40,000 nucleotides of DNA from Spartinivicinus ruber (GTDB lineage Bacteria; Pseudomonadota; Gammaproteobacteria; Pseudomonadales; Zooshikellaceae): assembly GCF_011009015.1 (NCBI RefSeq), contig NZ_CP048878.1, positions 2,656,354 to 2,696,353 on the forward strand, in the 5' to 3' direction. The notes under the pieces are model-generated. The model was not told the origin of the DNA. It did not search any database and saw only the letters and a list, made by a program, of their open reading frames with translations. The position numbers were made by a program, and so were the translations under genes. Shown one piece after another: positions 11,599 through 38,027 of this stretch (its first letter is position 1; each line of letters opens with the position of its first letter).

Positions 11599-11630
11599 TT
11601 ATTTTCTTCCTTTTTAATTCTTATTTTCCT

Positions 11631-11918: not shown

Positions 11919-11922
11919 CTGA

Positions 11923-12255: not shown

Positions 12256-12288
12256 TAAAAAGTTGGGCGAATCTTAACGAGATTATCC

Positions 12289-15650: not shown

Positions 15651-15661
15651 TACTATTCACC

Positions 15662-15859
15662 ATGAATAAAAAACAATACCACATTGCCCGGGGATTCCCG
15701 TGGCGAGGGAGTTGGGTTGATCCAGGTGAAGTCATTCAATTAATACCCTGTGAAGCGGCCCAATTACTCCGCACCCAATTTATTCAGCCGGTAACGGTTG
15801 AGGTACCTGAAAGACGCACTCGACGCAAAAGGAACAATAGCGATGCCCCAGATAACTAA
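15662..15859 (+). CDS. Hypothetical 65-aa protein in the fibre-assembly position
   Basis: ORF only. It has a basic C-terminus and overlaps the sheath start by 17 nt. Confidence 0.3.
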   Translation: MNKKQYHIARGFPWRGSWVDPGEVIQLIPCEAAQLLRTQFIQPVTVEVPERRTRRKRNNSDAPDN

Positions 15860-17009
15860 TTTTGAACATAACGGGATTACCGTTATTACTAATGAGCCGC
15901 CCCCGCCATTGGGTCCGCCGGGTGAAAACGTGGTGGCTTGGGTCGTCACCGCCCCTGATAAACATGAATCGGTGCCATTAAACTGCCCGTATCGCGTCTC
16001 TAATTCCACGACAGCCGCTTTATTGGATAGTAAAGGTGATGAGCGTGGCACTGGTTGGCATGCGGCGATTCAAACACTGCAACGCACCCGGGTGCCCCAG
16101 TATTTTATTGTGGTGGAAGAAGGGGCCGACGAAGCGGAAACCACCAAAAACATTATCGGTGGGGTTGATACGGATACCCGACAGTTAACGGGCATTTCGG
16201 CGTTGGCGTTATGCTCCGAACGTCCAACCCTAATTGCCGCCCCTGGGTTTAGTCATCAAAAGTCGGTGGTGGATGCTTTAGCCTCCATGGCGAATAAATT
16301 ACGTTGTCGGGTCATTGCTGATGGCCCTGCACAGAATATTAAGCAAGCCACGAAATATTCCGAGCAGTTTGGCGGTGACGGTACGGGGCATGATCGGGTG
16401 TATCTTGTGGAACCGATGCCCGCCATTTACAGTAAAAAAGCCCAGGGTAATATTTATGTTCCCGCTAGCACTTTAGCGATGGGCGCGGTAGCGGCGGTAA
16501 AACCCTGGGAAAGCCCGGGTAACCAAGGGATTTATATTCAGGATGTGTCGTATCACATTGACTACAACATTATTGATAAATCCACTGATGGTAACTTGCT
16601 CAATAAACATGGTATTTCCTATTTTGCCCGCACCAGTGACGGTTGGCGTTTAATCGGTAACCGGACAGTGACTGGCGATTTTATTTCCCATATCGGATTA
16701 AAAGACGCCATTGCCAGAAAGTTAGAGGCAGCCAGCCAGCGGGCGATGAGTAAAAACCTGACCATGTCTTTTATGGAACAGGAAATTACCAAAGTCGATT
16801 TATTTATGCAGGATTTAGTCGCCTCTGAAATTATCCCCGGTGGGAAGGTGTATCTTCATCCTGAGTTAAATACGGTGAGCCGCTATAAAAACGGCAGTTG
16901 GTATATTGTGGTTGAGTATGGTCGTTATAGTCCGAACGAGCACATGATTTACCATGTGAATGCCAGTGACAATATTATTGAAGAATTCTTAGAGGAGGTC
17001 TTAAGCTAA
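15843..17009 (+). CDS. Contractile tail sheath protein, P2 FI-like
   Basis: I prefer the ATG at 15843 (MPQITNFEHNGITVITNE). About 388 aa, followed directly by the tube gene. Confidence 0.85.
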   Translation: MPQITNFEHNGITVITNEPPPPLGPPGENVVAWVVTAPDKHESVPLNCPYRVSNSTTAALLDSKGDERGTGWHAAIQTLQRTRVPQYFIVVEEGADEAETTKNIIGGVDTDTRQLTGISALALCSERPTLIAAPGFSHQKSVVDALASMANKLRCRVIADGPAQNIKQATKYSEQFGGDGTGHDRVYLVEPMPAIYSKKAQGNIYVPASTLAMGAVAAVKPWESPGNQGIYIQDVSYHIDYNIIDKSTDGNLLNKHGISYFARTSDGWRLIGNRTVTGDFISHIGLKDAIARKLEAASQRAMSKNLTMSFMEQEITKVDLFMQDLVASEIIPGGKVYLHPELNTVSRYKNGSWYIVVEYGRYSPNEHMIYHVNASDNIIEEFLEEVLS

Positions 17010-21592: not shown

Positions 21593-21773
21593 TACGGTAG
21601 CTGATTTACTATACCGGCATTTAGGGCAAGATAATGACGAATTAGAGAACGCTTTTTATCAACTCAATCCAGAAATAACACAACTCACTTATATCTTACC
21701 CGCCGGTATTCCCCTCACTTTACCCACCCCTCAACCGATAAAACCAAAGCCAGTTATACAATTATGGGATTAG
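21561..21773 (+). CDS. Tail protein, P2 gpX-like
   Basis: About 68-70 aa. VTTLAGDTVADLLYRHLG fits the gpX N-terminus. Confidence 0.75.
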   Translation: MLMRVTTLAGDTVADLLYRHLGQDNDELENAFYQLNPEITQLTYILPAGIPLTLPTPQPIKPKPVIQLWD

Positions 21774-22774
21774 ATTATCGCGTATATCCAACTATGACGG
21801 GTGCGCATGCCAACATTATTAATCAACGGCTCATCTCCTGGGAATTAACCGATGCGGCGGGTCATCAGTCTGACCAATTAAAACTAGTCGTCGATGCGGA
21901 AGGATTACCTGGCCTACCCAAAGAAGGTGAAAGAATAGGGTTAATACTGAATTATCAAGGTGTTCCTTATGATAAAGGCGAGTTTTTAATTACCCGGATT
22001 AACGCCAAATTATTTCCGATGGAAATAACCATAGTTGCAACAGCGGCACCGTTTCAGGTGAAAGATGACAGTGCGTTTAAGAAAAGACGGTCACAGTCCT
22101 ATGAGCAATATACACTCGGTGTGTTATTTGAAAATATCGTAAAAAAACACGGTTTTTTACCTCGCGTCGATCCAGCGTTAGCTAATATTAAAGTAAGTCA
22201 TGTCGATCAAACCGACGAAACGGATATGTCGTTTATTACCCGTTTAGCCAGGCAGTATGATGCAGTCGCTAAGCCTGTCAACCAGCTGTATATTCTGGCT
22301 AAAAAAGGACAGCTAAAAAGCATATCGGGTAAACAGTTATTGACTGTTAAAGTTGGTTTGCCTGCCAATAACCAGCCGACAAATCATAATTTTATTAATG
22401 CACATGCCACTTTACCGAGTCGAGGTAAATATAATGGTGTGGTCACTCTCTGGTGGGATGGAAAAGCCGCTAAGGAACGAGAAGTGAAAATAGGCAAACC
22501 TGCCTATAAAAAACTACGACACCTGTTTGACAGTGAGGCTAAGGCCAGAGAAATAGGCCAAAGTCAGCTAAGAAAAGTGGGTCGTAAAGGTGTGAATATT
22601 TCCTTAGAAATACCAGCGAATCCGTTGTTAGTAGCGGAAGGATTGATCGAATTAGATGGGAGTTTTCCGGGTCATATGCAAGGTAAGTGGTCAATAGAGC
22701 GGGTGATGTATAGAGGTAATAAGTCGATGGGTTGTAGGTGTTCGGTGAGTGCGGGGCAACCCAGTAATAGATAA
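21764..22774 (+). CDS. Tail/late control protein, P2 gpD-like
   Basis: 336 aa and the last gene of the tail module. MSFITRLARQYDAVAKP is gpD-like. Confidence 0.85.
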   Translation: MGLDYRVYPTMTGAHANIINQRLISWELTDAAGHQSDQLKLVVDAEGLPGLPKEGERIGLILNYQGVPYDKGEFLITRINAKLFPMEITIVATAAPFQVKDDSAFKKRRSQSYEQYTLGVLFENIVKKHGFLPRVDPALANIKVSHVDQTDETDMSFITRLARQYDAVAKPVNQLYILAKKGQLKSISGKQLLTVKVGLPANNQPTNHNFINAHATLPSRGKYNGVVTLWWDGKAAKEREVKIGKPAYKKLRHLFDSEAKAREIGQSQLRKVGRKGVNISLEIPANPLLVAEGLIELDGSFPGHMQGKWSIERVMYRGNKSMGCRCSVSAGQPSNR

Positions 22775-22806
22775 TGATCAATTAATCGTTGGGTAAGGAA
22801 AGCCAA

Positions 22807-23292
22807 ATGATAAGATCTTTAGAAAAAATTACATTATCAGACCTAAAAAAATTGTATCAACTAGCTTCTGAAGATATGAGGGCTTTTTTTTAAACGAAAT
22901 CCAAGATATAAAAGCTCGTATTTTGGCAATGAAAGTTTAGTTGCGCTATGTCAGGGAACAGCATTGCATTACATTGATAGTAAAAACGGTGTTAAAGATT
23001 TTGATATATGGTTCTTTTTCCAGAAGCTGGAATCAATTTGCCTTGTCGTCGTAGAGGTGTAGTAGATTTTGGCCAATCGAAATTTGGAAAGCACCCAGAT
23101 GTAACAGAATATGAGGGTAGAACTGTTGATGTTCTAATGCGTTCAGATAAAGCATTCAATAACACTACTGCTGAATCAGGGATTGCTAATTACTTATCAA
23201 AGCCAAGAACTAAAACCGCTAGATTATTAGCACAAAAGGCGGTAATTGGTCTATATCCAGAAAATATTTTTGGTAAAGTGATGTGGCAGTAA
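22807..23292 (+). pseudogene. Gene interrupted by two compensating homopolymer frameshifts (possible nucleotidyltransferase fold)
   Basis: Frame 1 (22807-22890) stops after a T8 run. Frame 2 (22892-23019) reads KRNPRYKSSYFGNESLVALCQGTALHYIDSKNGVKDFDIWFF. Frame 1 resumes after the T5 run (23015-23019) and runs to 23292. Confidence 0.5.
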
Positions 23293-23486
23293 CTTTTAAT
23301 AAATAGTAGACAATAAAGGCAACAAAAATATTGGCCTGTTAAATCTAAATTACAGCGTAAAGGGCATTTAAATAAAAAAATACTGTTTAGTAATATGTGA
23401 AAGTAAGTCATTAGTATAACAAATGATTGTTTATTGATCTGCAATCCTATATTTAGTGATTTAAAATTTATTTACGAGTATTTATT

Positions 23487-24206
23487 ATGACACAATGGCA
23501 TTATGCAGTTAACGGAGAACAAATAGGCCCTGTTAGCATTGATGATATTAAAGTCGCTGTTAATGCAGGTAAAATAACTACTTCGACGAAAGTATGGAAT
23601 GGTAAAGGGGATTGGAAACCTGCTAAGGAAACACGGTTATTTGACATTTTAAAATCAGCAGATCCAGCAATTCCTCCACCTCTAGCTTCTGAGGATGTAG
23701 CTAATAACTTCATTTGGATATTGATAGTAGTTCCAATTCTAGGAGTTACTATTGATTTTATTATTGGTACAGTTTTGATTTTTCCATCATTTATCGCCAA
23801 TACTATTTTATGTATAATGGACATAAGAAAGTTGAAGGCAGCGGGTTACATTGCGCCAAATCATTGGACGGTTTTTATTGTACCTGTTTATATATGGAAA
23901 CGTGCAACATTACTAAATCATAAAAGGAACTACTTTTATAGTTGGATAGCTTCTTTTTTCTTGTCAATATTCCTTGCTATTAGTGGTGCTAGATTAATTA
24001 TAGAAGAAGCTGCCTGTCCTATAGTCACAGATATAATCAAATCACAATTATATAGTTCAGCAAAATGTATGGGTGTGAGTATAAATAAAGAAGTAACAAC
24101 TGGTTTTTACAAAGCAACTGCAACTTTAGATAATGGGTATGATATTAATATTACCATTGAAGAAAAAGACAATGGGATGATTTACATACGAATTCCTAAC
24201 CAGTAA
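23487..24206 (+). CDS. GYF_2 (DUF4339)-domain membrane protein
   Basis: The N-terminus WHYAVNGEQIGPVSIDDIKVAVNAGKITTSTKVWNGKGDWKPAKE is the GYF_2 pattern. Three to four hydrophobic helices and a small C-domain follow. Confidence 0.65.
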   Translation: MTQWHYAVNGEQIGPVSIDDIKVAVNAGKITTSTKVWNGKGDWKPAKETRLFDILKSADPAIPPPLASEDVANNFIWILIVVPILGVTIDFIIGTVLIFPSFIANTILCIMDIRKLKAAGYIAPNHWTVFIVPVYIWKRATLLNHKRNYFYSWIASFFLSIFLAISGARLIIEEAACPIVTDIIKSQLYSSAKCMGVSINKEVTTGFYKATATLDNGYDINITIEEKDNGMIYIRIPNQ

Positions 24207-24259
24207 TAATGTGAGTTTAGTACAGGATAAAAGTAACAAACGGATCAGATGCTAGATAT

Positions 24260-24760
24260 ATGGATCTACTTAGTTGGATCAAGGCACCAAGAGAAGTTGT
24301 ATGGCCTTTAATAATCGTTAGCTGCTTACTGCTATGGGGGCCCGGATGGTTTGTACAAGGTTTGGGACTTGAAAGTTTCATTGATGAGTATAGAAAGTGG
24401 CTTGGAGTAGTATTCTTATTTTTTCTGATCGTAGGGATTCAACCAGCTATACCATCTGCATATAAAAAAATCATAAAGATGATCGACACACGTAAAAGGT
24501 TAAACAAAGCAACTGAGGAGATATCAAATCTTACTCCAAAAGAAAAAGAAATTTTAAGATATTATATTATCAATAATATCAGGACACAAGATCTAAGTAT
24601 TCAAGATGGTAATGTAAATATTTTAATTTCAAAGGGCTTCTTAATTTTGGCATCAAGTGTCAGTTATGGAGGCATGAAGGGTAGTTTTACTTTTCCAGTA
24701 AATATAACTGACTGGACATGGAACTACATTAGAAAGAATCCAAATGTGTTGGAGGATTAG
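24260..24760 (+). CDS. Two-TM membrane protein, SieB-like (superinfection exclusion candidate)
   Basis: Two N-terminal TM helices are followed by LTPKEKEILRYYI...DGNVNILISKGFL. This resembles the SieB-family pattern as I recall it; not searched. Confidence 0.5.
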   Translation: MDLLSWIKAPREVVWPLIIVSCLLLWGPGWFVQGLGLESFIDEYRKWLGVVFLFFLIVGIQPAIPSAYKKIIKMIDTRKRLNKATEEISNLTPKEKEILRYYIINNIRTQDLSIQDGNVNILISKGFLILASSVSYGGMKGSFTFPVNITDWTWNYIRKNPNVLED

Positions 24761-24858
24761 GTAGTTAATACTATAAAGTCGGATGAAATGAATACCATCA
24801 GTGTGTGGGAAAAAACTATAAACACTATAAATGTAGTATTCATCAATCACTGTTATTA

Positions 24859-24917
24859 CCCTGAACTACCGATTTTTTAGTATATCACGTCATAGTGACG
24901 TTCATTAGTAGTTAGGA
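24859..24917 (+). other. attC-like recombination site (attC-1)
   Basis: CCCTGAAC ... ACGTCAtagTGACGT ... GTTAGGA. The arms CCT(G)AACTAC and GTAGTTAGG pair with one bulged G. The left arm is longer than canonical. Confidence 0.6.
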
Positions 24918-24940
24918 CTAGCATAAGCACAGATATAAAA

Positions 24941-25276
24941 GTGTTGCTTGAGCACTTAATATCAGACGAATGGGTTTTGGTTGATGTTGACCCTATTTAT
25001 TCTTCTGATAGAAACTCGAAAAGGCGAGAGGCTTTATACGAGCTTAAGCATGCTGAGTTGACTAGCAATGTCAGCAAAGGGGCTAAGTATTGGTTTGAAG
25101 GTGATGACGCTCTAGATTTTGTTGCTGCCTTAAGTATCTTGGAGGCTTGTGCTCTTTGGCATAGAACGGAGTTAAATTCGAATCAGCTTGAAATGAATTT
25201 ACAGGGCCAACTAACAACATATTTTGACTTATGGGAACCTGATTTTGAAAAGTGGAGGGTGATCGTTGCAATTTAG
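24941..25276 (+). CDS. Cassette ORF, hypothetical acidic 111-aa protein
   Basis: It is the only ORF in cassette 24912-25348. It has a GTG start and a weak SD. Confidence 0.45.
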   Translation: MLLEHLISDEWVLVDVDPIYSSDRNSKRREALYELKHAELTSNVSKGAKYWFEGDDALDFVAALSILEACALWHRTELNSNQLEMNLQGQLTTYFDLWEPDFEKWRVIVAI

Positions 25277-25284
25277 TCAACCCA

Positions 25285-25354
25285 GTCCTAACAAAGCGCT
25301 GCTAGGGAAAAACCTACGCTGTGCTTCGGTTTTCCCCAGAGCACGGCGTTAGGC
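25285..25354 (+). other. attC site (attC-a)
   Basis: R'' GTCCTAAC, 5-nt spacer, L'' GCTGCTAGG, stem GGGAAAAACC/GGTTTTCCCC, L' CCAGAGC, 5-nt spacer, R' GTTAGGC. Confidence 0.8.
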
Positions 25355-25376
25355 TTCAAAAAGGAGGTTATCAGCA

Positions 25377-26051
25377 TTGTTTAACCTACTTATTTCAGCA
25401 AACCCGGAGAGTTGGGATTCACCTCATTGGGAAATCGAGCGAGCTAGGGCAGTTGTTGAATATACTGCTGATGAAATCAGCGAGCGGTATAAATTCTTCG
25501 ATGAAAAAGCAATTCGGGAATTAAAAAGCTTTCCCTGCTTATTCGTCATAGAGAACGAATATAAAGAATCTCGAATTGGATATATCACAGATATTAGGGT
25601 TCGGCAGAATACCGTCGTAGTAGATTTTGAGTTTGATCCAATCCTCCCTTTCTTGCCGATTGGATCAATAGAAAACCTAAGAGCAGATATCGACCTAGGT
25701 CGTTGGGAATTGTCTCGAACTCATTGGGCTGTAAAAGATGAAGCTATTTTTGATATTTTGCTCAAGCACGGCCTAATTACCCTACAGCAGTTAAATGCAT
25801 CGCAAGCATTAAAAGAGCCACCGCCACCACCTATAGTTCCGCCAGCAACTGCTGACGGTTCGGTTCCATTCAACACATCACAAGTATTCATTGTGCATGG
25901 CCATGACGAAATCGCTAAATTAGAGATAGCCGAGTTCATCGAAAGCCTAGGCCTGGAACCTATTATTCTTCATATGCAAGCTAGTTCGGGGCGCACAATA
26001 ATCGAAAAGATCGAACATTACTCCAATGTTGGGTTTGGTGTCGTACTTTAC
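25377..26051 (+). pseudogene. TIR-like (COG4271/PF10137-type) protein, 5' part, cut by IS3-family insertion
   Basis: TTG start with AAGGAGG SD. An uncharacterised N-domain is followed by a PPPPP linker, then VFIVHGHDEIAKLEIAEFIESLGLEPIILH...GFGVVLY, which is interrupted. Confidence 0.8.
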
Positions 26052-26107
26052 CCCTCTCTGTCAGGCTAGTTGTCGTTTTTATTCACTGAGATGACGACAG
26101 ATAACTG

Positions 26108-26590
26108 ATGGCTAAATATACCAAACAGCAAAAAGAAAATATCTTAAAGCTATTGCTCCCACCCGAAAATAAATCAGTCCCAGTGGTACACAAAATGACT
26201 GGCATTCCTCAGTCAACCCTGCATACTTGGAAAACCAAAGTGCGAAGTCAATCTGCCAACATGCCGAAAGAAACATCAAATCAAAGCTGGTCATCAGAAC
26301 AAAGGCTTAATGTGATCATTGAGACAGCGGCCTTATCTCAAGCAGAGCTAGCAGCCTATTGCCGAAAAAAAGGGTTGTATGTTGAGCAAGTTGAGCAGTG
26401 GAAACAGGCATTTATTCAGCCAGAGCAACCCTCCCAGGAGCTAAAGAAAAGCTTGCAAGTGGAAAAGCAGCGGTGCCAACAACTTGAAAAAGAGCTAAAG
26501 CGAAAAGAAAAAGCACTGGCCGAAGCCGCGGCCCTGTTAGTCCTTCAAAAAAAAGCTCAGTCAATCTGGGGACCGGACGAGGAAGCCTAA
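26108..26590 (+). CDS. IS3-family transposase OrfA (HTH + leucine-zipper-like)
   Basis: 160 aa with an HTH (MTGIPQSTLHTWKTK) and a coiled-coil C-terminus. Confidence 0.85.
   Translation: MAKYTKQQKENILKLLLPPENKSVPVVHKMTGIPQSTLHTWKTKVRSQSANMPKETSNQSWSSEQRLNVIIETAALSQAELAAYCRKKGLYVEQVEQWKQAFIQPEQPSQELKKSLQVEKQRCQQLEKELKRKEKALAEAAALLVLQKKAQSIWGPDEEA
26547..26554 (+). promoter_or_regulatory. IS3 programmed -1 frameshift site (A8, A_AAA_AAA)
   Basis: The OrfA frame reads CAA AAA AAA GCT. OrfB lies in the -1 frame and is open across the site. Confidence 0.7.
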
Positions 26591-27633
26591 CGTCGTATGC
26601 GGATAGGCAACAAACAGTTCAGTTAATTGGGGAAGCCACAACTGCAGGGGCTCGGCAATTTAAGGCCTGTGAAGTATTAGGGTTAACCCCGCGCACTTAT
26701 CAACGGTGGCAGCAAGGCGGTGAGCTACAACCGGATGGCCGCACCACTGCACAGCGTCCATTGCCGCCTAATAAGCTGCCTCCCAATGTTCATCAACAGA
26801 TGCGAGAAACGCTGAATTCACCGGAGTTTGCTGACCTCCCACCTTCTCAGATTGTGCCTAAATTAGCAGATCAAGGTGAGTATATTGCCAGTGAAGCCAG
26901 CTTTTATCGGCTCATGCGGGCAGAAGGGTTATCAACCCATCGAGGGAAGACCCAATCTCGTCAACCCAAACCGAAAACCACCCACACGGCGACAGGCCCT
27001 AATCAACTTTGGTGCTGGGATATCACTTGGTTGCCAGGTCCCGTCACCGGCATCTTTTTTTACCTGTATTTGATCCTTGATGTTTTCAGCCGCAAGGTGG
27101 TTGGCTGGGAGGTGCACGATTGTGAGCGTAGTAGCCTAGCGGCAGACTTAATACAGAAAGCCTTCTGGCGGGAAAATCTCCATAAAATTCACCAGCAGCC
27201 CCTGATATTACATTCAGATAATGGGAGTCCAATGAAGGGAAGCGCTTTACAAGTCAAACTCGCTGAACTTGGTATTGAGCCTTCTTATAGTCGACCGCGA
27301 GTTAGCAATGACAATGCTTATGCAGAGTCCATATTTAAGACCACTAAATACCGACCAGATTTCCCTCACCAAGGGTTTACCTCATTAGAAAGCGCTCAAC
27401 GGTGGGTTGATCAATTTGTTCATTGGTATAACCATGAGCATCAGCATAGTGGATTAAAGTTTGTAACACCGGTACAACGCCATACAGGTGAAGACCTAGT
27501 TATTTTAAGCCGGCGGAAACAGGTTTATGAGCAAGCTAAAGCAGCTTCCCCTAACCGATGGAGTGGGAATATACGAAACTGGGAGTTGGCAGATGAAGTC
27601 CACTTAAACCCTGAGAGAAATCAAACTCGTTAA
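26554..27633 (+). CDS. IS3-family transposase OrfB (DDE/rve core), made as OrfAB fusion by -1 frameshift
   Basis: The -1 frame is open from the A8 run. It contains an HTH (ACEVLGLTPRTYQRW), WCWDITWL, HSDNGSPM and SRPRVSNDNAYAES motifs. Confidence 0.85.
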   Translation, partial: SSVNLGTGRGSLTSYADRQQTVQLIGEATTAGARQFKACEVLGLTPRTYQRWQQGGELQPDGRTTAQRPLPPNKLPPNVHQQMRETLNSPEFADLPPSQIVPKLADQGEYIASEASFYRLMRAEGLSTHRGKTQSRQPKPKTTHTATGPNQLWCWDITWLPGPVTGIFFYLYLILDVFSRKVVGWEVHDCERSSLAADLIQKAFWRENLHKIHQQPLILHSDNGSPMKGSALQVKLAELGIEPSYSRPRVSNDNAYAESIFKTTKYRPDFPHQGFTSLESAQRWVDQFVHWYNHEHQHSGLKFVTPVQRHTGEDLVILSRRKQVYEQAKAASPNRWSGNIRNWELADEVHLNPERNQTR

Positions 27634-27847
27634 TATCCATTTAAAACTGTGCAACTCCCCTCTTTAATTGAAGCTGCTGAGGATGGATGCTTTGCATCGC
27701 AAGGCGTCCACCAGAAGGAGCAATGGGTGTTGTCTGTGTTATTAATAATTAGCCCTAAATTGATTATTAATATTTATTATGCCTCACGTTTTGAGATAGC
27801 TCGATGAAGATAAGAAGATAACACGACAACTACGTTGACAAACACCG

Positions 27848-28097
27848 TTACACGCCCTGCGATGTCGGCTCTAAGTTTGGTGCTTTGAACGGCAACTATC
27901 GAGCGCGCCAAAATGTCGTATTTGAACACGGTTATTTAATTGGGAAACTAAGTCGTTCAAGAGTGACTGCGGTAGTTAAAGGCCCGGTCGAAACACCAAA
28001 CGATATTAGTGGGGTCGTTTACATTGCGCTAGACGAGAAAGGCAATTGGAAGAGTGAGCTTATAAAAGAGATGTGTAGTGCTGGTTATGTCGTATAA
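27848..28097 (+). pseudogene. TIR-like protein, 3' part
   Basis: In frame after the target duplication: TPCDVGSKFGALNGNYRARQNVVFEHGYLIGKLSRSRVTAVVKGPVETPNDISGVVYIALDEKGNW. This is the conserved core of TIR-like PF10137 proteins. Confidence 0.8.
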
Positions 28098-28177
28098 GCC
28101 TAACAATGCCGTAAACTTGGACGCATTTTTCGTTCGTTGCGCTCACTACAAATGCGCCGGTACGGCTGGCGTTATGA
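28098..28177 (+). other. attC site (attC-b)
   Basis: R'' GCCTAAC directly after the stop codon, L'' CCGTA.., L' ..TACGG, spacer CTGGC, R' GTTATGA. Confidence 0.8.
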
Positions 28178-28192
28178 CTCAAGGAGGACGAT

Positions 28193-28795
28193 TTGGCAGA
28201 GTTAGAAAATAGCAAAATAAAAGAGTTACTGCGAAGAACTAAGCTGACAACAAAGTCTCGGTACAAGGCTAGCGAGAGATTTGCAGCACACCAAAAGGTA
28301 TCGCAGTGGACTGTAGCTTTTATTTCTGCAGCTTTAATCTTTATACCTCTCTTCCAAGCCTATGGTGTAAAATTAACCATTCCTGAGCAACTATTGAATA
28401 GCTTTCAATCAGTTTTAGCTGTTATGGTGCTTGTTTATTCCTTATTGCTTGGCCAGGAAAATTTTGTATCTCGAGCGGAAGCGATGCATAGAAATGGAGT
28501 GGAGTTAGGAAGATTTGCTAGAAAGTTAAGGGGGATTCCTGATGGCTATAGTAAGTATGATGAGTTGGTAGAAGAGTACTATGGAATATTAGAAAAATAC
28601 GAAAATCACAAGCCTGTGGATTATTTATTTACTCGCCTTCACCAAAAACCCGAAAAGTTTTTAGAGTGGCCTGGATATTTTTGGCTTTGGCTTAGAGCTC
28701 AATTTTTCATGTGGCTTGGCTACACTCATTACATTGCCGCATGGTGTTTTGTTGGATACATTTTCTATTATATTTTTACAAATATTGCGTCATAA
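28193..28795 (+). CDS. SLATT-like multi-TM membrane protein
   Basis: TTG start with AAGGAGG SD. The N-terminal TKSRYKASERFAAHQK helix, two TM helices and the AEAMHRNGVELGRFARKL helix match my recollection of SLATT family layouts. There is also an aromatic-rich C-terminal TM region. Confidence 0.5.
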   Translation: MAELENSKIKELLRRTKLTTKSRYKASERFAAHQKVSQWTVAFISAALIFIPLFQAYGVKLTIPEQLLNSFQSVLAVMVLVYSLLLGQENFVSRAEAMHRNGVELGRFARKLRGIPDGYSKYDELVEEYYGILEKYENHKPVDYLFTRLHQKPEKFLEWPGYFWLWLRAQFFMWLGYTHYIAAWCFVGYIFYYIFTNIAS

Positions 28796-28830
28796 CAAGG
28801 GCCATCAAAACTGACAAATAAGTGTAGGCT
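28789..28830 (+). other. Degenerate/truncated attC remnant (attC-c)
   Basis: GTCATAAC is the exact complement of the cassette start TTATGAC at 28172. The right box is GTGTAGGCT rather than GTTAGGCT. The site is only about 40 bp with no clear L boxes. Confidence 0.35.
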
Positions 28831-28834
28831 ATAA

Positions 28835-29449
28835 ATGGAGTTTTCTAAATTGAACATAACATTTGGGATAGCTATAGGGGCAATAATAGCTGCTGTACTA
28901 AATATTATTGCGAACCATATAAGCAGAAGGGTAAATGAGAATGTCAAGAAAAAAACCTGTGTAAAAATACTGTTTGGAGAGCTTCTTAACGTTCTAAATC
29001 ATTATCAATTTTCGGGTATTCCCATTAGTCTAATAGACGGAGATGATAGAAACATTTCGGAAGTTATTAAGCGCATGGAGTTCGCCAAATACGGAGATTT
29101 TAAGGCAGTAAAAAATATAGAGCTATATGGTTTCCTTTCTGCTGTTCAAGTTCGCAATATTCACCAGCTATCACTAAAGATTCGAAATACAGACACTCTT
29201 ATAAAAAGCTATCTATCCTCAGAATTTGTAAATAATTCTGCAGCGACTCATGAAGAAATCAATCTAGTTCGTGAGATTGGCTCTCGAATGGATTACGTAT
29301 CAGATACCGCTGATCTTTTGTTATCTTATATTTCAGAACAGCACCCAGAATATAGTTCGTTATTTCAAGATACGAAGAATATCGAGAAGCCAAATTATGC
29401 GCTGTATCAGAAGCCTAATAAACAAAGGCAGCATCGCCTTGCGGGCTGA
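28835..29449 (+). CDS. Cassette ORF: N-terminally membrane-anchored 204-aa protein, unknown function
   Basis: One TM helix (ITFGIAIGAIIAAVLNIIA) followed by a predicted helical soluble domain. Confidence 0.6.
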   Translation: MEFSKLNITFGIAIGAIIAAVLNIIANHISRRVNENVKKKTCVKILFGELLNVLNHYQFSGIPISLIDGDDRNISEVIKRMEFAKYGDFKAVKNIELYGFLSAVQVRNIHQLSLKIRNTDTLIKSYLSSEFVNNSAATHEEINLVREIGSRMDYVSDTADLLLSYISEQHPEYSSLFQDTKNIEKPNYALYQKPNKQRQHRLAG

Positions 29450-29485
29450 ACGCGCTAATGCGCGCCGCTTCTTTGGTCGTTAACT
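29413..29485 (+). other. attC site (attC-d)
   Basis: R'' GCCTAAT, spacer AAACA, L'' AAGGCAGC (extrahelical G), L' GCTTCTT, spacer TGGTC, R' GTTAACT. The right half is homologous to that of attC-e (GCGCGCCGCTT..TTGG.CGTTA). Confidence 0.65.
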
Positions 29486-29498
29486 GCTCGGAGGAAAG

Positions 29499-30110
29499 AT
29501 GAGCGCTGTAGAAGTATTTTCTATAATTAAAGATGTTTTTCTTGCAGGAGCAGCAGGTACTACAGCATATGTAGCATATACTGGACTTGAAAAGTGGCAG
29601 AAGGAACTCCGAGGAAAAGCCAACTTTGAAGTTGCCAGAGAACTGATTAAGTCGGTCTACAAGTTAAGAGATGAGATTGGTTATTGTCGCTCTCCGTTTA
29701 TTTTTGCGGCGGAATTTCCTGACGGGTACAAAGGCTCACTAGGTAAGCATACAGCAGAGGAAGAAGGACAAGCATGGGCATATGTGTACTCTAAAAGATG
29801 GGAGCCTGTTGGCCAAGCAGTTCAGCATTTTGATGCTGCTGTGTTAGAAGCTGAGGCGCTTTGGGGTGTGAGCATTAAGGAAAAAGCTAAAGAGTTGCGC
29901 CAGTGTGTCCGTAGCCTTCAAGTAAATATTGAAGCCGTGATTGCAGATAAATATTCTGGTGGTGAAGATTTCAAAGACAAAGACTTTGCTAAAAAAGTAC
30001 GGTCTGCGGTTTCTGATACTAAATCCATAGAAAACGAATTAACCAATAAAATTGACGTTGCAATAGGTGGCCTAGAGTCAAAAATCAGGCCGCATCTATC
30101 GCGCAGCTAA
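29499..30110 (+). CDS. Cassette ORF: N-terminally membrane-anchored 203-aa protein, unknown function
   Basis: GGAGGAAAG SD. One TM helix (VFLAGAAGTTAYVAYTGL) followed by a helical domain. The architecture matches the preceding cassette ORF. Confidence 0.65.
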   Translation: MSAVEVFSIIKDVFLAGAAGTTAYVAYTGLEKWQKELRGKANFEVARELIKSVYKLRDEIGYCRSPFIFAAEFPDGYKGSLGKHTAEEEGQAWAYVYSKRWEPVGQAVQHFDAAVLEAEALWGVSIKEKAKELRQCVRSLQVNIEAVIADKYSGGEDFKDKDFAKKVRSAVSDTKSIENELTNKIDVAIGGLESKIRPHLSRS

Positions 30111-30165
30111 CAAGGTGCTCAAGCTAGGACGTGATACCGCGCGCCGCTTAGCTTGGCGTTAGCCT
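30106..30165 (+). other. attC site (attC-e), canonical 60-bp form
   Basis: R'' AGCTAAC, AAGGT, L'' GCTCAAGC (extrahelical C), loop, L' GCTTAGC, TTGGC, R' GTTAGCC. This is the same layout as attC(aadA7) recalled from memory. Confidence 0.85.
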
Positions 30166-30264
30166 AACAATAAACTCTTTTTTCTTGAAAATTTTTATAT
30201 TTTATCAGTCTACCTCAACTTGCAATGCCTTGTGAGTGTTTTTTCCCTCGTAGAAGGAGACTCT

Positions 30265-30790
30265 ATGTCTAAACCTATTTTTGTCTGGATGGGCGGCAAG
30301 CGCCGTTTAGCCAGGCACATCTTACCGTTATTTCCTGATCACACCTGCTAGGTTGAACCGTTCTGTGGTCAGCCGCATTATTTTTTATGAAGGAGCCGTC
30401 GAAAGCAGAGGTATTAAATGATATTTCGTCGGATGTGATTAACTTATTCCGGGTAGTGCAGCATTACTTAGAAGAATTTATCCGACAGTTTAAGAAGGCT
30501 TTGGTTAGCCGCCAGTTATTTGAGTGGGTAAAATAGTACCCCACCTGAAATGCTAACCGATATCCAACGAGCAGCACGGTTTTACTAGCTGCAGCAGCTG
30601 ATCTTTGGTGTTAAACTAACTGGCCGAACCTTTGGCACCACACTATTAAGGTTTAACTTAATCAGGCTAAAAGAAACCCTTTCACAAGCTCATTTGAGGC
30701 TAGCAAGGGTAACAATAGAGAACCTGGATTGGCAGCAATGTATTAAAACGCTACGACTGGGAACATGGAAGTTTAGAGCGCACTAGTGGG
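30265..30790 (+). pseudogene. Dam-type (D12 class) N6-adenine DNA methyltransferase pseudogene
   Basis: MSKPIFVWMGGKRRLARHILPLFPDHTC*VEPFCG, then a frameshift, then AALFFMKEPSKAEVLNDISSDVINLF..., then further stops and shifts (RAARFY*). The DPPY motif is absent. Confidence 0.75.
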
Positions 30791-32268: not shown

Positions 32269-32367
32269 TCAAAAATAGTCTGTTTCAAGCTCATCATGCA
32301 GTATTATTACCTGCTTAGGTTTGCTAACCTTCAGGGATTCACCGATACGACGTGTCACAGTCAACAT
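32269..32367 (-). CDS. 32-aa CsrA-like mini-protein (MLTVTRRIGESLKVSKPKQVIILHDELETDYF)
   Basis: AGGAG SD 9 nt upstream. The N-terminal 14 aa parallel CsrA MLILTRRVGETLMI and the C-terminus parallels APKEVSVHREEI. The central ~25 aa of CsrA are missing. Confidence 0.4.
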   Translation of the reverse strand: MLTVTRRIGESLKVSKPKQVIILHDELETDYF

Positions 32368-32572
32368 AGTTAAACAACTCCTAAATAGTGCGTGTACATT
32401 ACTACTCGGAAATTTTTAGGGGGTGAGAATCCAGCTTTTCTACAATCCGTTCTAATACTTCTTATTTGATCGTGAGTCAACCTAATAAAAATAGGCTGCT
32501 GAATGGAGGGAAGATCAAGAGTCGTACATCAATAATGTATAGATATACATCATCACTTTTACAATTTTATGT

Positions 32573-32938
32573 ATGAAAAAAATGACTAATAAAACCAAGC
32601 AACAACGCTTTGCAGCAGTAAACAAGCTAATCAAAATCATTGCCACTTGTGGTCGGTGCATTTTCTCAGAAAATGCAGATAAACCGAATAACGTTGAAAA
32701 CCCTTTTATTGCATCCATGGAAATTGATGGGTGTGGAAAAGTGTGGTTTACCGATTCATACACCAGAAAATGTATTTACATCCTCTATGGCTATAGCTGG
32801 AGGTACTTTACCCATGGTGGAATAAAGCGTCTCGTTGAATTCTTCAGAAATCACATAACCAGAGGAGCCCAAATTAAATCAGACTGTTTTGATCTTGGGG
32901 AGATCGGCACCCATGGGAATACGGTAAGGATATACTGA
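32573..32938 (+). CDS. Hypothetical 121-aa protein
   Basis: ORF only. I prefer it over the overlapping antisense ORF 32515-32763, but without strong grounds. Confidence 0.4.
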   Translation: MKKMTNKTKQQRFAAVNKLIKIIATCGRCIFSENADKPNNVENPFIASMEIDGCGKVWFTDSYTRKCIYILYGYSWRYFTHGGIKRLVEFFRNHITRGAQIKSDCFDLGEIGTHGNTVRIY

Positions 32939-33123
32939 TAGGAAGCAGTATTGAGACTAGGAATAGCCAAATAAAAAAAGCACTGCTTCGTCAACGTTGG
33001 TTTAGGGAGTAGTAAGTAAAACGAAGCAATGCACACGGGGGCTACCGTGTAATCAGTATGACCCGAGCCACTTAAAGAAGTTCACACATAGTGCTTTATA
33101 TTGATCCAAAGAGGATATACATC

Positions 33124-33505: not shown

Positions 33506-33701
33506 AAATAGGTATAGGCTCTCTTGTTTTAATTTAATTGGTTCTCTGATATGTGCTCTGAAAAATCAAGGTTTTAGTGTGCTTTTAATCTACCCACACA
33601 AATAAAAATTTTTTAAAGGTGACTGTTAATTAATTATCATTTTTTTGTTTTCTTAGAACGTATATTTATTTCGCGATTTAAGTTTGCACGAGAGAGTTTT
33701 C

Positions 33702-34832
33702 ATGAATACCATTAATCCTGTTTCTGTTACACAGCAAGTAACAAATTTAAATAATTTACCTGGTAGTGAATCTAGGAAAGTACAAAACCAAGTATCAAGT
33801 TTATCTGAATTAACTAGAAAAATTGGTGCTAGTGTTGCTGAAAGTATTCAAGATCAGCCACTTTCTAGAAAAAAACGCGGTATTCCACCTGATTGGCAAC
33901 CATCTCAACCTGAGCCAAAACCAGAAAAAAGTGATAATAGTTATGTTACTGTTGAACCAGTACCTTACGAACTAAGGTTTACATGGGGTGGTAGCTCAGC
34001 GGCAGAATATCTTGATGCTTTCGCTAGGCCTTGGTCAAATGCTGCAGAAATTGGTTCTAAATTTGTGAGCGCTGCAAGAGGCGACTCGATTCAGGAAGCT
34101 GATGCAAATTCTGCTAGTACAAAAGAGAAAGCTAAACCAGCAGATTCAATTATAACAGGGATTATTGGCTTTTTGGGTGGACCTTTTGGGAGAGGTTTTG
34201 CAGGACTCCAACAAATTGCTGGCCAAGCATCAGATACTTTAGAAACAGGCAAGCCACCTGAAATTCCAGTTGATCCACGAATCTTTGGTGGTGGTCCAAA
34301 CCTAGCTGCTGGAAGAAGACCAATTATTCCAAGAGAAGAAATTTCAGAGCCGACAATTACTCCTGAAAGTACACCTCGTGTTGAGGGTGAGCAACCGGTG
34401 GAAGTAGAAGAAGAACAAGTTAATGTTAGATGCAGAAGGACTTTAGGGGGAGAGTGTTCTCCTGGACCGTCAAGTAGCCAGGGAGCTGCTAATGTTCGTG
34501 AGACTGCTCGGGCTGATTATGAAAATGAATTTCCAATTAATAACCCTAAAGTAAAAAATACGACGGATAATCTTTTTTCGAAGACAGACCCTGCTCATGG
34601 AGGAGATACTACAGCTTCATCTGCAAGACAAGAGCTTGAAGAATCTCACTCAACTGCATTAGTACTCCATGATGGAAGTGCTCAAGCTAAACTATTTAAC
34701 TCTGAAGCTGTATCAAGACCTGACTCAGCTGGTGAAAGTGTAGACTTTGTAGGGAAGTTAAATTTGAATGGTGAAACAATAGAGGTAGGATTAGACCCCT
34801 TCCAGCCGCCTAATACCAATCCTGTTTATTAG
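33702..34832 (+). CDS. Low-complexity, probably disordered secreted/effector-like protein
   Basis: I prefer the ATG at 33702 (MNTINPVSVTQQVTNLNN...). It is S/T/N/P/E-rich with no TM helix or signal peptide. The last 5 codons are supplied by the IS630 end. Confidence 0.55.
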   Translation: MNTINPVSVTQQVTNLNNLPGSESRKVQNQVSSLSELTRKIGASVAESIQDQPLSRKKRGIPPDWQPSQPEPKPEKSDNSYVTVEPVPYELRFTWGGSSAAEYLDAFARPWSNAAEIGSKFVSAARGDSIQEADANSASTKEKAKPADSIITGIIGFLGGPFGRGFAGLQQIAGQASDTLETGKPPEIPVDPRIFGGGPNLAAGRRPIIPREEISEPTITPESTPRVEGEQPVEVEEEQVNVRCRRTLGGECSPGPSSSQGAANVRETARADYENEFPINNPKVKNTTDNLFSKTDPAHGGDTTASSARQELEESHSTALVLHDGSAQAKLFNSEAVSRPDSAGESVDFVGKLNLNGETIEVGLDPFQPPNTNPVY

Positions 34833-35904
34833 CTTGTTAAAACAGCCCAACATCTGGAGCACAAGCTTTTAATGTTATTTTTCTTATTCACAAATACATT
34901 CCATGCCTCACAACAAGACTCAACAATATCATTGAAATTTTTAAAACAACGATTTGCCAGTGAATCTTCTCTCAGTTTTTCCCATATCCGCTCTACCGGG
35001 TTAAGCTCTGGGGAAACGGGTGGTAAATTTAATAGCGTGATATTCGCAGGTATTTCTAGGCGATGAGTCGTATGCCATGCCGCTTGATCAACGATAACCA
35101 GTCCGTGTCTTCCCTTAGAAATGGCTTTTGAAATTTCTGTTAAGTGCAACCTCATTGCTTCTGTGTTAGCAATAGGTAATACAAGAGCCACTCCTCTATC
35201 TTTAGCAGGACACACAGCGCCAAAGAGATAAGCTGACTCAAACTGTTGTTGCTTTACCACTCGTGGACGCGTACCTTTCTCTGCCCAAATACGCGTACAG
35301 GTATTTTGCTGACCCACTCTGGCTTCATCTTGAAACCAAATATCAACTTTATCTGGAGAAACGCATGAGGGAAGTACTTTTAAGGCCTCTTTTTCAAAGT
35401 TTTTTTAAATGCTTGCTGTTTATCTGGGCGATGATTAGGATGTTTAGATCTTGATGTAATCCAAGAAAGTCCTGCTTTATGCAATACTTCATAAATACTA
35501 CTTAAGCTGTAGTCTATATTAAATTGTTCCAGCAGCAACTGTTGTATGTCTTTACCCTGAACTCTACCGCCTTGACGATGGTTTTGTAAGGTAATAACCG
35601 CTGCTTTAAATTCATTATATTGTGAAGGACAAAGAAACGGTTTTTTTCCTCTACCGGGTTGTTCATAAAGTCCTTCAAGGCCATCTCGTCTAAAACGGTT
35701 GAGCCAGTCCTGAATGGTATTGTTTGATTTCCTTAATGCTCGTGCTATTTCAGTTTGAGACCAACCTGCTTGTAAATGAGCCATCGCTAATAAGCGAAGC
35801 CGTGTTCTTGGATGTGGTTCTCTGTTCAGTAAGGCATCAAAGTCGTAGTCATACAATTCATCTGGAATAGAAGCAATCCTTGCCATTATTAAATTCCTAG
35901 TCAA
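34829..35904 (-). CDS. IS630-family transposase (two frames joined at an A7 run)
   Basis: The N-part has an HTH (35904-35380). The C-part has WFQDEARVGQQ...QQQFESAYLFGAVCP...LNPVERIWEKLR. The -1 frame is open from the A7 run and gives ...QQAFKKNFEKEALKVLP.... Confidence 0.8.
35400..35406 (-). promoter_or_regulatory. A7 slippage site joining the IS630 transposase frames
   Basis: The minus strand reads TTT AAA AAA ACT. A -1 shift yields AAA AAC TTT GAA = KNFE, continuing the typical AFKKNF motif. Confidence 0.55.
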
Positions 35905-36076
35905 ATTAAGTGAAATACTGTGACCAGGTATTTTACAGATTATTTACCACGATTGGTATAAGGGGTTAAAGGATGCTCCTGTTTCTGATATAAATTCAAG
36001 TAACCCTGAACTAACAAAATGGTTAAATGGTGCATTTCGAACCCACACACACAATATAAAAGGTGGGCAGGACATT

Positions 36077-36355
36077 ATGGGGACTACTGGTATACTCGAT
36101 GTTACTGGTTTTTCTCAAGAAAAAGTAGATGCGCTGTTAAAAGTAATAAATGAAACGAAAGCAAGCCGATATGAAAACCCAAGTAATCCTGAGGATATAG
36201 AAAACATAGAGAATTTTGTTGTGGTTGATCGTCAAAAAGAAACTGTAGACTGGCATATTACTGAAGATCAGTTAACTAATATTTGGGAGAGTAAATTTGC
36301 TAAAAGCCAGCAAGATGAGGATGGCTTTGGTGGATTATTCGGAGACGGAGAGTAA
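36077..36355 (+). CDS. Hypothetical acidic 92-aa protein
   Basis: ATG with AAGGTG upstream, followed by a terminator. Confidence 0.5.
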   Translation: MGTTGILDVTGFSQEKVDALLKVINETKASRYENPSNPEDIENIENFVVVDRQKETVDWHITEDQLTNIWESKFAKSQQDEDGFGGLFGDGE

Positions 36356-36755: not shown

Positions 36756-38027
36756 TCAGTATAGCGAGACTTTCGGCAGCTCATCCCAGTTAGTAAAAAA
36801 GTGAGGTGACAGGTGACGTCTTACTAACTTCCACGAAGGATTAATACCATTACTAGCTAAGAATAGCCCTTTAGGATAACGTCTATTGATGTCATCAACT
36901 ACTTGCATTAAGCGTTTAGATTTTGGTGTATCTAGCATGGGGGTGAACAAGTCTTGTTGTATAACTTGTTGCTCACAAATCTCACTCAACATGACTCCAG
37001 CCTTAGCATAGGCATGACCAGACCTGAAAATATGGTGAAGCCCTTGGGTTGCCATTTCTACCAGTAGTCGTGTATCAGAAGTTGGGTGGGGGAGCTGCAC
37101 CAAAGCGCTATTACGGTATTGTGGTACATCCGCAAAGGGGCTAGTACGAATAGAAACAGTAATGTTATGTGCAGATGATCCCTGGGCTCGTAGCTTTTCT
37201 GCCGCTCGTGCTGTATAGGTGCTAATCGCTTCTCTCAGATGCTCCAGCTTATAAAGGCGTTGTGAAAACGAACGACTACAGATGATTTGTTGCTTAGCGG
37301 GAGCTTCGTTTTCTAAATCAATACAAGACTCTCCATTAAGCTCTCGAACAGTACGCTCTAAAACAACACTATAGCGTTGTCGGATTAACGTGGGCGGCAT
37401 ACAGGCCAGGTCATAAGCCGTTTTCATCCCCATATTAGTAAGTGACTTATAAAGGCGGTGCCCAACCCCCCATATTTCCTCCAATGGCATGAGCTTGAGC
37501 AGTTCTTCTTGAATGGTTGAATCAGTTGCGTCAAATACACCACCCGTTTCAGGGTGCTGCTTAGCATAATGATTTGCAAGTTTGGCTAGCGTTTTTGTTT
37601 TAGCAATACCAATACTGACAGGTATGCCAACTTGCTTCATGACTTGTTTTTTAATCATTACAGAGTAATCAGAGATAGAATCAATAAACTTGCAATGAGT
37701 TAGCTCCATGAACATTTCATCAATAGAGTAACGCTCGGTGTCAGGTACGAATGACTCAAGTATCTGCATGACTCGCTCAGAGATAACCCCGTAATTTTCA
37801 TAGTTTGATGAAAATAGTTGAATATTATGTTGTTTAATCAGGTGCATTACTTGAAAAACTGGTACACCCATTTTGATGCCTAGTTTTTTTACTTCATTTG
37901 ACCGCGCAACAATACAGCCATCTTGGTTTGATAAGACAGCTATTGGCTTATTTTCCAGGTCAGGCCGGAACAAACGTTCACAACTTGCATAAAAATTGTT
38001 GCAATCAACAATAGCGATTTTTTTCAT
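36756..38027 (-). CDS. umuC: DNA polymerase V catalytic subunit UmuC (Y-family)
   Basis: MKKIAIVDCNNFYASCERLFRPDL...SIDEMF... is the Y-family signature. ATGA overlap with the umuD stop. I prefer the start at 38027 over 38066. Confidence 0.9.
   Translation of the reverse strand: MKKIAIVDCNNFYASCERLFRPDLENKPIAVLSNQDGCIVARSNEVKKLGIKMGVPVFQVMHLIKQHNIQLFSSNYENYGVISERVMQILESFVPDTERYSIDEMFMELTHCKFIDSISDYSVMIKKQVMKQVGIPVSIGIAKTKTLAKLANHYAKQHPETGGVFDATDSTIQEELLKLMPLEEIWGVGHRLYKSLTNMGMKTAYDLACMPPTLIRQRYSVVLERTVRELNGESCIDLENEAPAKQQIICSRSFSQRLYKLEHLREAISTYTARAAEKLRAQGSSAHNITVSIRTSPFADVPQYRNSALVQLPHPTSDTRLLVEMATQGLHHIFRSGHAYAKAGVMLSEICEQQVIQQDLFTPMLDTPKSKRLMQVVDDINRRYPKGLFLASNGINPSWKLVRRHLSPHFFTNWDELPKVSLY

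Follow-up and report, generated by a model that had tools for sequence, protein, structure and literature searches.

The locus and its cassettes

Between a phage tail gene of the gpD type and the remains of a phage DNA adenine methylase gene (dam), the gammaproteobacterium Spartinivicinus ruber (Zooshikellaceae) carries a few integron gene cassettes in a short array, and no gene for an integron integrase (IntI) is in view. The DNA analysed here, referred to throughout as the window, is a stretch of 40,000 nt taken from the forward strand of the chromosome (NCBI RefSeq assembly GCF_011009015.1, contig NZ_CP048878.1, positions 2,656,354 to 2,696,353), and all coordinates are counted from its first base. 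Positions 1-22774 hold the intact + strand late genes of a myovirus-type prophage, recognised through PHROGs and including those for Ant, large terminase, portal, protease, tail fibre, sheath, tape measure, gpU-like and gpD-like proteins. After gpD come three pieces of cargo that are not cassettes, then the array, whose recombination (attC) sites are lettered a to f, and then the dam pseudogene; the interval between gpD and dam is called the slot below (Table 1). An original prediction, made by reading the letters of this DNA, had described an integron-type array of five good attC sites and one degenerate one, abutting the end of a prophage and without an integrase in view.

The array comprises five cassettes, two of which are fused. 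Two of the proteins they encode are 100% identical to NCBI entries for S. ruber. The open reading frame (ORF) of the first encodes a 111-aa protein with no match in Pfam, PHROG or PADLOC. In the second, the gene has been split by an insertion sequence (IS), and the rejoined ORF encodes a CAP12/Pycsar-type TIR protein (Pfam PF10137, 3.5e-36; PADLOC PDC-S35, 2.8e-77). The intruding IS3-family element, whose ORFs carry the Pfam domains HTH_Tnp_1 and rve, was delimited from near-identical copies, which are found at 99.4-99.9% identity in a prophage contig of IMG genome 2909979649 (L012; such handles denote contigs used for comparison) and among marine metagenome contigs, those of Tara Oceans included; the element appears to be recently active and widespread. 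The fused pair consists of a gene for a SLATT_5 protein (Pfam PF18160, 2.3e-50; RTasSLATT in PADLOC) and an ORF of 204 aa, and the last cassette encodes a member of a protein family of near-constant length, about 203 aa, represented in Vibrio, Parashewanella, Hydrogenovibrio and others. Strong Shine-Dalgarno sequences lie just after the R' boxes that begin the cassettes, in agreement with the original prediction (AAGGAGG at 25362 and 28181, GGAGG at 29491).

Table 1. Features of the gpD-dam slot and its flanks, in window coordinates. R1 and R2 are the covariance models described in the text.
Feature	Position	Strand	Remarks
gpD-type tail gene	21764..22774	+	phrog_52, 6.7e-88; left flank of the slot
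Decayed, frameshifted ORF	22818..23292	+	First cargo item after gpD; one frame broken by frameshifts and stops (three-frame translation)
GYF_2 membrane protein	23487..24206	+	Pfam GYF_2, 1.9e-12; phrog_12486, 2.3e-38
SieB, superinfection exclusion protein	24260..24760	+	Pfam PF14163, 9.5e-28
Site a, atypical AT-rich hairpin	24860..24917	+	R' GTTAGGA at 24911-24917 is the left boundary of cassette 1; not a canonical attC
Cassette 1	24912..25348	+	111-aa ORF (24941-25276), then attC b; ends placed between G and TT
attC b, canonical	25286..25354	+	R1, R2
Cassette 2	25349..28171	+	TIR gene in two parts (25377-26050 and 27851-28097), split by an IS; 306 aa when rejoined
IS3-family element	26051..27847	+	1797 bp; orfA 26108-26590, orfB 26761-27633; 3-bp TTA target duplication
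attC c, canonical	28098..28177	+	R1, R2
Two fused cassettes	28172..29479	+	SLATT_5 (28193-28795) with site d; 204-aa ORF (28835-29449) with site e
Site d, truncated attC	28789..28832	+	No fold
Site e, decayed attC	29413..29485	+	R'' GCCTAAT (AAT for AAC); R' GTTAACT (29479-29485) intact
Cassette 5	29480..30158	+	203-aa ORF (29499-30110), then attC f
attC f	30105..30164	+	60 nt; R'', 5 nt, L'' with extrahelical C, loop, L', 5 nt, R'
dam pseudogene (DNA adenine methylase)	30265..30747	+	Right flank of the slot; found by tblastn with the Dam of L006

attC sites and cassette boundaries

An attC site is bounded by an R'' box (RYYYAAC) and an R' box (GTTRRRY) that share an invariant AAC...GTT core and lie 57-141 nt apart. 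The attC family is absent from Rfam, and a scan of the window at Rfam gathering thresholds gave no attC-family match; the tRNA and Rfam scans of the window gave no match of any kind. A covariance model, R1, was built from 14 proven attC sites, all external to the window: nine belong to class 1 integron cassettes on plasmids, adjacent to intI1 (aac(6')-29a, aac(6')-29b, blaVIM-2, arr-3, aacA4, aadB, aadA1, aadA2 and dfrA12), and five to a chromosomal integron of Pseudoalteromonas piscicida that retains an intI remnant. With R and L stems assigned by hand, 85.8% of the cells in the training alignment were paired, against 26-44% when the partners were slid, and both-sided changes were present in nine stem pairs.

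Searching all 40 kb with filters off, R1 found three sites on the + strand, namely site f (36.0 bits, E 6e-7), site c (28.8 bits, E 4e-5) and site b (26.4 bits, E 2e-4), after which the best remaining match reached only 9.5 bits. Among attC sites outside the training set, the same model scored that of gcuF at 38 bits and four sites beside the intI of a Vibrio-type contig (L008) at 21-33 bits, and 0.73 Mb of phage and genomic control DNA held zero matches at E<=1. A second-round covariance model, R2, raised the three sites to 42.3 (b), 40.7 (c) and 45.9 bits (f) on the + strand, and scored only 8-9 bits on the - strand (8.9 at site b, 8.4 at site f); it too gave zero matches at E<=1, in 1.0 Mb of control DNA, which brings the controls of the two models together to 1.7 Mb. 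The gap between the strands is the polarity expected because of the extrahelical base of an attC site, and in the covariance-model alignments all three have an unpaired base at model position 16. At 69, 80 and 60 nt respectively, sites b, c and f keep the AAC...GTT core and deviate from the consensus at zero to two of the four variable positions in each box. The right half of site f and the attC of aac(6')-29b are the same over about 20 nt. These three sites are canonical attC, in the correct strand polarity.

Two other ways of finding sites were set aside. A scan by regular expression and constrained folding for AAC...GTT hairpins was dropped as unspecific, with 58 matches in the window against about 33 in shuffles; it missed sites a, c and e, the second of these surfacing only with a wrong R' partner. 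A model made from the window sites alone was rejected, MAFFT having misaligned the five sites.

The hairpin of R stem, spacer, L stem and extrahelical base is absent from sites a, d and e. Site a scores <=0 bits with R1, is not detected by R2, has a DNA fold z-score of -2.8 and carries an inserted G in its own R'' box; its R' box is complementary to the R'' box of site b at nine of ten positions, and it is a genuine R' boundary in an atypical site. Site d retains an R''-L'' half that resembles the attC of an 82%-identical SLATT_5 cassette in P. piscicida, and marks an internal deletion that fused two cassettes. Site e gave no R1 match at its own coordinates (the best overlapping match has 3.7 bits) and its region includes a terminator-like stem at 29451-29464; it is a genuine R' boundary with a decayed body. 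The tally is thus three good sites, two atypical or decayed and one truncated. The palindromes of the original prediction are all where it placed them, on the + strand and after or overlapping the end of an ORF, and a covariance-model check like the one it had proposed, made on the window with R1 as a substitute model, put three of them (b, c and f) at 26-36 bits within 1 nt of its coordinates, with the textbook layout and extrahelical C that it had described borne out at 30105-30164 in the R1 alignment. Its count of five good sites stands for these three and fails for sites a and e.

An internal test is given by the rule that a cassette, cut between the G and TT of an R' box, should begin with the reverse complement of the R'' box of its own attC. 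The matches claimed for this rule (8/8, 8/8, 7/7 and 7/8) were reproduced from re-derived coordinates. In 10-nt windows, each R'' box was set against the reverse-complemented R' box ahead of it and agreed at 9, 9, 9 and 8 positions, compared with 6 and 7 for in-place comparisons of R'' and R' within one site, and 6 for site f when recounted by hand. Of 19 informative positions outside the fixed core, 18 agree, for which we calculate a chance probability of about 2e-10. The cassette boundaries therefore fall between the G and TT of the R' boxes.

The same edges emerge from comparison between genomes. Window 29478-30111, which holds the 203-aa cassette, is 85.5% identical to positions 606-1239 of a Vibrio mediterranei contig (L071); the homology starts one base ahead of the site e R' box, runs to the AAC of the R'' box of site f, and there is none outside. 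The 82%-identical homologue of the SLATT_5 gene is a cassette in the P. piscicida integron with its intI remnant and five attC sites. Judged by such similarity, two of the cassettes are known elsewhere, one of them as a cassette of a real integron. The 111-aa and 204-aa ORFs found no useful relatives in metagenome contigs, and the comparison between genomes covers the 203-aa and SLATT_5 cassettes.

Several of these homologues and edges have peculiarities of their own. The V. mediterranei copy of the 203-aa cassette keeps its R' and R'' boxes, with unrelated sequence in place of the rest of the attC right after the AAC (1239-1300), and no attC is recognisable upstream of its R' (560-605); the attC there may have been the target of an inserting element. 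Homologues of SLATT_5 from Xanthomonas and Aeromonas lie outside integron arrays and provided no extra attC for training. Those in Agarivorans and Aeromonas (L057 and L060, around 10001-10606) stand alone in ordinary chromosomal contexts, and the Agarivorans copy retains a matching pair of boundary boxes, GTTATGGC ... GCCATAAT, suggestive of one cassette that was inserted outside an integron. At the right edge of the window array, TAAC comes immediately after the R' box (GTTAGCC) of the last attC, so that positions 30158-30172 read GTTAGCCTAAC, an R'-like box overlapping an R''-like GCCTAAC box; the overlap could be what is left of another cassette site, since deleted, or else the sequence originally targeted.

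No intI was found in the 40-kb window by tblastn with IntI1 (best E-value 0.68), a query that recovers the intI genes of L008 (42% identity over 317 aa) and L056, nor does any of the window ORFs scanned carry a Phage_integrase Pfam domain. The attI sites of integrons are integrase-specific, and a general model for them is lacking. An attC cluster that has no integron integrase (CALIN) is defined by at least two attC grouped on the same strand, with less than 4 kb between neighbours and without an integrase close by. Three model-supported attC lie on the + strand at 25.3, 28.1 and 30.1 kb and, because there is no intI in the window, the array is a CALIN, in keeping with the integron-type array without an integrase in view that the original prediction had described. 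It is not a complete integron, in which intI lies upstream within a few kb and in divergent orientation, and with five cassettes it is not a sedentary chromosomal integron, which has more than 10 cassettes and near-identical, species-specific attC. The window attC, 60-80 nt long, align poorly with one another (48% mean column identity), whereas those of L008 are a uniform 126 nt.

The probable prophage setting and possible origin of the array

The flanks of the array are best understood by reference to related phages, in which gpD and dam are neighbours. Of the window's dam, residues 1-164 of 252 are left, at 48% identity to the Dam of L006; the C-terminal third is lost, at least two frameshifts are present and several in-frame TAG codons stand where relatives have Tyr. 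Recoding of TAG was considered and rejected, given the frameshifts and the 3' truncation. In three viral contigs with a gpD 55% identical to that of the window (L006, L007 and L011), a homologue of window 30264-30639 directly follows gpD and is a DNA methyltransferase of phrog_56. The closest annotated relatives of the L008 gpD are Vibrio phage VP882 and Halomonas phage phiHAP-1, whose annotation places a methyltransferase within about 150 bp of gpD, followed by ParA, protelomerase and replication genes. In five further relatives (L074, L080-82 and L107) the gap between gpD and dam is 156-287 bp, as compared with 7.5 kb in the window.

A further comparison is with a viral contig (L005, IMGVR_UViG_2909979649_000007) whose source, an isolate genome, contains the identical IS as well. 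Its gpD is 95% identical to that of the window, and it is collinear with the window as far as 22752 and again from 30246, 19 bp ahead of the dam start codon, with an unrelated 4 kb between these same flanks. With conserved phage flanks that are shared and unrelated DNA between them, the interval bears the signature of a variable cargo slot. Many integrated relatives have dam as the final gene of their viral contig, for which reason the prophage plausibly ends just to the right of 30.7 kb. The claim that the array abuts the end of the prophage is probably incorrect: the array lies between gpD and the phage dam, genes that adjoin one another in relatives.

The 4 kb of L005 have an interest of their own. 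Positions 11056-14764 encode a homologue of SDH/ClpP-type serine proteases (326 aa) and a protein of 886 aa that combines HSDR_N, AAA-ATPase and S1 domains, a gene pair that is possibly an uncharacterised two-gene defence system; its sole PADLOC match is a weak one to mad3 (E 0.0012).

The left part of the window's slot is likewise occupied by cargo. The decayed ORF next to gpD has no Pfam or PHROG match. The GYF_2 gene has no relatives in viral contigs and, with no attC adjoining it in the R1 search of the window, is cargo and not a cassette. The only promoter-like sites found are weak and precede sieB, at 24106-24134 and 24181-24210. The GC content of 22775-24911 is 32.9%, against 44.4% in the phage late genes.

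Taken together, the locus is probably a CALIN of five cassettes that sits inside phage-derived DNA, in the gpD-dam slot of a chromosomal, VP882/phiHAP-1-related prophage of S. ruber. The cassettes would be promoterless ORFs, each with its own Shine-Dalgarno sequence and oriented in the same direction as the phage late genes, and transcription of the array would probably start at the promoter-like sites upstream of sieB or arrive by read-through from the late operon. SieB, the TIR protein of the PDC-S35 type, SLATT_5 and the other ORFs are probably superinfection-exclusion and anti-phage cargo for the lysogen, to which the cassettes, together with SieB, may give exclusion or abortive-infection functions. 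Excision or shuffling of cassettes would depend on an IntI supplied from elsewhere, whether from another site in the genome or from a new host after transfer, and such an enzyme could act only on the three intact sites b, c and f. The array may have entered the phage by IntI-mediated insertion at a secondary GWT (attG) site, or by recombination with a chromosomal array. Part of the cargo has decayed, with a TIR gene split by an IS, one attC truncated and one mutated, and the array may be eroding in the absence of an integrase.

Five points weigh against this account. R1 is not the model used by IntegronFinder and its calibration was shortened, making its E-values rough. Two of the sites first noted, 24859-24917 and 29413-29485, fail R1 (<= about 4 bits) and are missed by R2. 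No attC lies in the gpD-dam slot of any of about 90 related viral contigs, and there is no family-wide pattern. The boundaries of the prophage are inferred from comparison alone, its left end and att sites lying beyond the window. Finally, given the truncated dam and two displaced prophage fragments further right (described below), the right phage flank could be an older remnant of a separate prophage.

In a different history, the array would be host DNA, the remnant of a chromosomal integron caught between two phage elements: an intact prophage on the left that ends just after gpD, and an older, decayed one on the right, the integrase having been lost or separated from its cassettes by phage insertion. 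We regard this as unlikely. It would account for the truncation and mutation of dam, yet adjacency of gpD and dam is the rule in relatives, and L005 shares the gpD end and the dam start, each to within about 20 bp, with unrelated DNA between them. It would suit a region with many IS elements and pseudogenes and, at 32330-33085, rearranged fragments of another prophage's early region, but a cargo slot is simpler than two independent tandem insertions, and the 2 kb from gpD to the first R' hold SieB and a phage-family protein, not host genes. Precedents for prophages beside integrons exist in L008, where about 290 bp separate a related prophage from the intI of a complete chromosomal integron of Vibrio, and in Vibrio anguillarum, where prophages flanked by attC or intIA are documented (PMC9892861); the window attC, however, are heterogeneous (60-80 nt), unlike the uniform sites of sedentary integrons such as that of L008. 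The two alternatives of the original prediction, that the phage had inserted into the array or that the cassettes travel with the phage, can accordingly be ranked, the second being the better supported.

A second alternative concerns the manner of entry. During residence of the phage in a host whose integron was active, an excised circle of several cassettes could have been inserted by the integrase into a GWT (attG-type) site of the phage, in which case site a would be the junction with the target and not an attC. Efficient IntI-mediated insertion at GWT sites in genomes has been shown experimentally (bioRxiv 10.1101/2022.09.11.507474), and it would explain why site a fails both models and yet has the correct boundary between G and TT, matching the R'' of cassette 1. 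Nevertheless, the R''-like box of site a (CCT-G-AAC) pairs with its R' over 9 bp, as a decayed attC would and a random target would not, there is no empty-site sequence from which to reconstruct the target, and the non-cassette cargo at 22.8-24.8 kb requires a separate acquisition; we hold this course of events to be improbable.

The weakest alternative, that the palindromes are terminators or repeated extragenic palindromes resembling attC by chance, can point to the abundance of AAC...GTT hairpins in the window (58, against about 33 in shuffles) and to the terminator-like stem at 29451-29464 in one site, and is for practical purposes refuted by strand-specific covariance-model scores of 26-46 bits with no match in 1.7 Mb of control DNA, by the boundary complementarity rule, by homology breakpoints at R' and R'' boxes across genomes, and by the identity of about 20 nt of site f with a class 1 cassette attC.

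The array is a solitary case among its kin. A phage lineage that commonly carries cassettes in this slot was considered and rejected, since 0 of 80 dam-bearing viral contigs had an attC match, and the arrangement in the window is a one-off in this phage family. Megablast with 15-31 kb of the window as query found no match among GenBank phages, and neither Ant nor the large terminase gave access to the left-hand portion of the closest relative, these phages being mosaic.

To the right of dam the window becomes a zone of decaying phage DNA. At 32330-33085 lie two fragments, 74-81% identical to the early region of a prophage from IMG genome 2909979649 (L070), which are 4.6 kb apart in that prophage and adjacent in the window; right of the array, then, stand the remnants of a second prophage of which most has been deleted. 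At 33684-36355 a long ORF without a Pfam match is interrupted by an IS630-family element, whose DDE_3 and HTH ORFs lie on the - strand at about 34.83-35.95 kb; with the IS removed, the ORF reads through in frame to give about 515-525 aa. A umuDC operon follows on the - strand at 36756-38461; the closest UmuC among species-representative genomes is that of Zooshikella (55-57% identical), whose UmuC region shows no sign of gene order shared with the window, and the same search found a umuDC pair in a viral contig (L047).

Known systems and significance

Arrays of this type have been described as CALINs since 2016 (PMC4889954; Neron et al. 2022, PMC9024848), and the window array resembles them in having at least two attC on one strand with spacing below 4 kb, each after an apparently promoterless ORF, and no intI nearby. 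It differs in lying in prophage DNA, and in being small and partly decayed, with one cassette gene split by an IS, three sites intact, one truncated, one mutated and one atypical.

Nor is it the first to be found in phage DNA. Among 10,705 phage genomes, Qi et al. (2023, PMC9892861) reported 17 CALINs, three complete integrons and one In0, including those of V. anguillarum prophages bounded by attC or intIA and of a Shewanella prophage. The window array is like these in lying in or beside temperate phage DNA of a marine gammaproteobacterium and in its ordinary attC; it differs in host genus (Spartinivicinus), in the type of phage (a VP882/phiHAP-1-like late module), in having a defined gpD-dam slot, and in its cassettes, which are defence candidates where those of Qi et al. 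are mostly methyltransferases or unknowns (PMC9892861). Having been taken for an unusual arrangement when first noticed, the locus is less so in the light of the CALINs and complete integrons described in phages in 2023 (PMC9892861), and represents a rare but already described kind of arrangement. The observation made from the sequence is, on the whole, partly confirmed, and the interpretation that accompanied it partly supported.

A comparable junction is to be seen in L008 (IMGVR_UViG_2875330874_000002). At 11306-16218 of this Vibrio-type contig, about 290 bp downstream of a prophage gpD that is 48% identical to the window's, lies a complete integron that encodes a 320-aa IntI (42% identity to IntI1) and carries at least four cassettes, whose attC are a uniform 126 nt, the contig ending inside the array. 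Its attC match those in V. anguillarum phage p16, and the junction is reminiscent of those between prophage and integron that Qi et al. (2023, PMC9892861) described in V. anguillarum. Since the L008 prophage lies beside a complete integron, phages of this type can adjoin integrons.

Among annotated phages, the nearest comparison is with the hapunaviruses VP882 and phiHAP-1, telomere phages whose prophages are linear plasmids. The tail gene order is the same, with a methyltransferase directly after gpD, and the L008 gpD is 47-51% identical to theirs. By contrast, the window has no ParA, protelomerase or Rep genes, lies on a chromosome contig of 6.36 Mb, and has mosaic head and early modules.

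The cargo invites comparison with two bodies of work on anti-phage defence. P2-like cargo loci of temperate phages are reportedly hotspots for defence and moron genes, as described by Rousset and colleagues in 2022. The slot in the window is like such hotspots in its fixed position, in holding different accessory genes in the window and in L005, and in being empty in other relatives; it differs in that its cargo is partly built of cassettes, an arrangement seen in none of about 90 related contigs. That anti-phage defence genes occur in integron cassettes is established (bioRxiv 10.1101/2024.07.02.601686, 10.1101/2024.07.02.601719). The window cassettes are alike in being compact single genes, here with a predicted TIR effector (PDC-S35) and a predicted SLATT_5 membrane effector, and unlike in that there is no integrase, the array is neither large and uniform nor on a plasmid, and the TIR gene is inactivated.

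The interest of the locus lies in the defined gpD-dam slot, the defence-type cassettes beside sieB and the visible decay. Integron cassettes are a large reservoir of anti-phage genes and the cargo slots of prophages a major route by which such genes spread; this locus joins both. To our knowledge, concrete examples of cassette transfer carried by phages are few. It is conceivable, though we think it doubtful, that a temperate phage here serves as a natural acceptor and donor of cassettes, taking them up by attG-type insertion through a host integrase, using them for defence of the lysogen and releasing them to re-excision by the integrase of the next host. On the same tentative footing, the phage would be an integrase-less shuttle of defence cassettes between the integrons of different marine bacteria. 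Transfer of cassettes between integrons by phages has been proposed by Qi et al. (2023, PMC9892861). The inserted IS, the truncated attC and the mutated attC illustrate how cassettes become fixed once an integrase is absent; if, nevertheless, the prophage is inducible and an integrase acts on the three intact attC, phages of this kind could carry cassettes between the integrons of different species.

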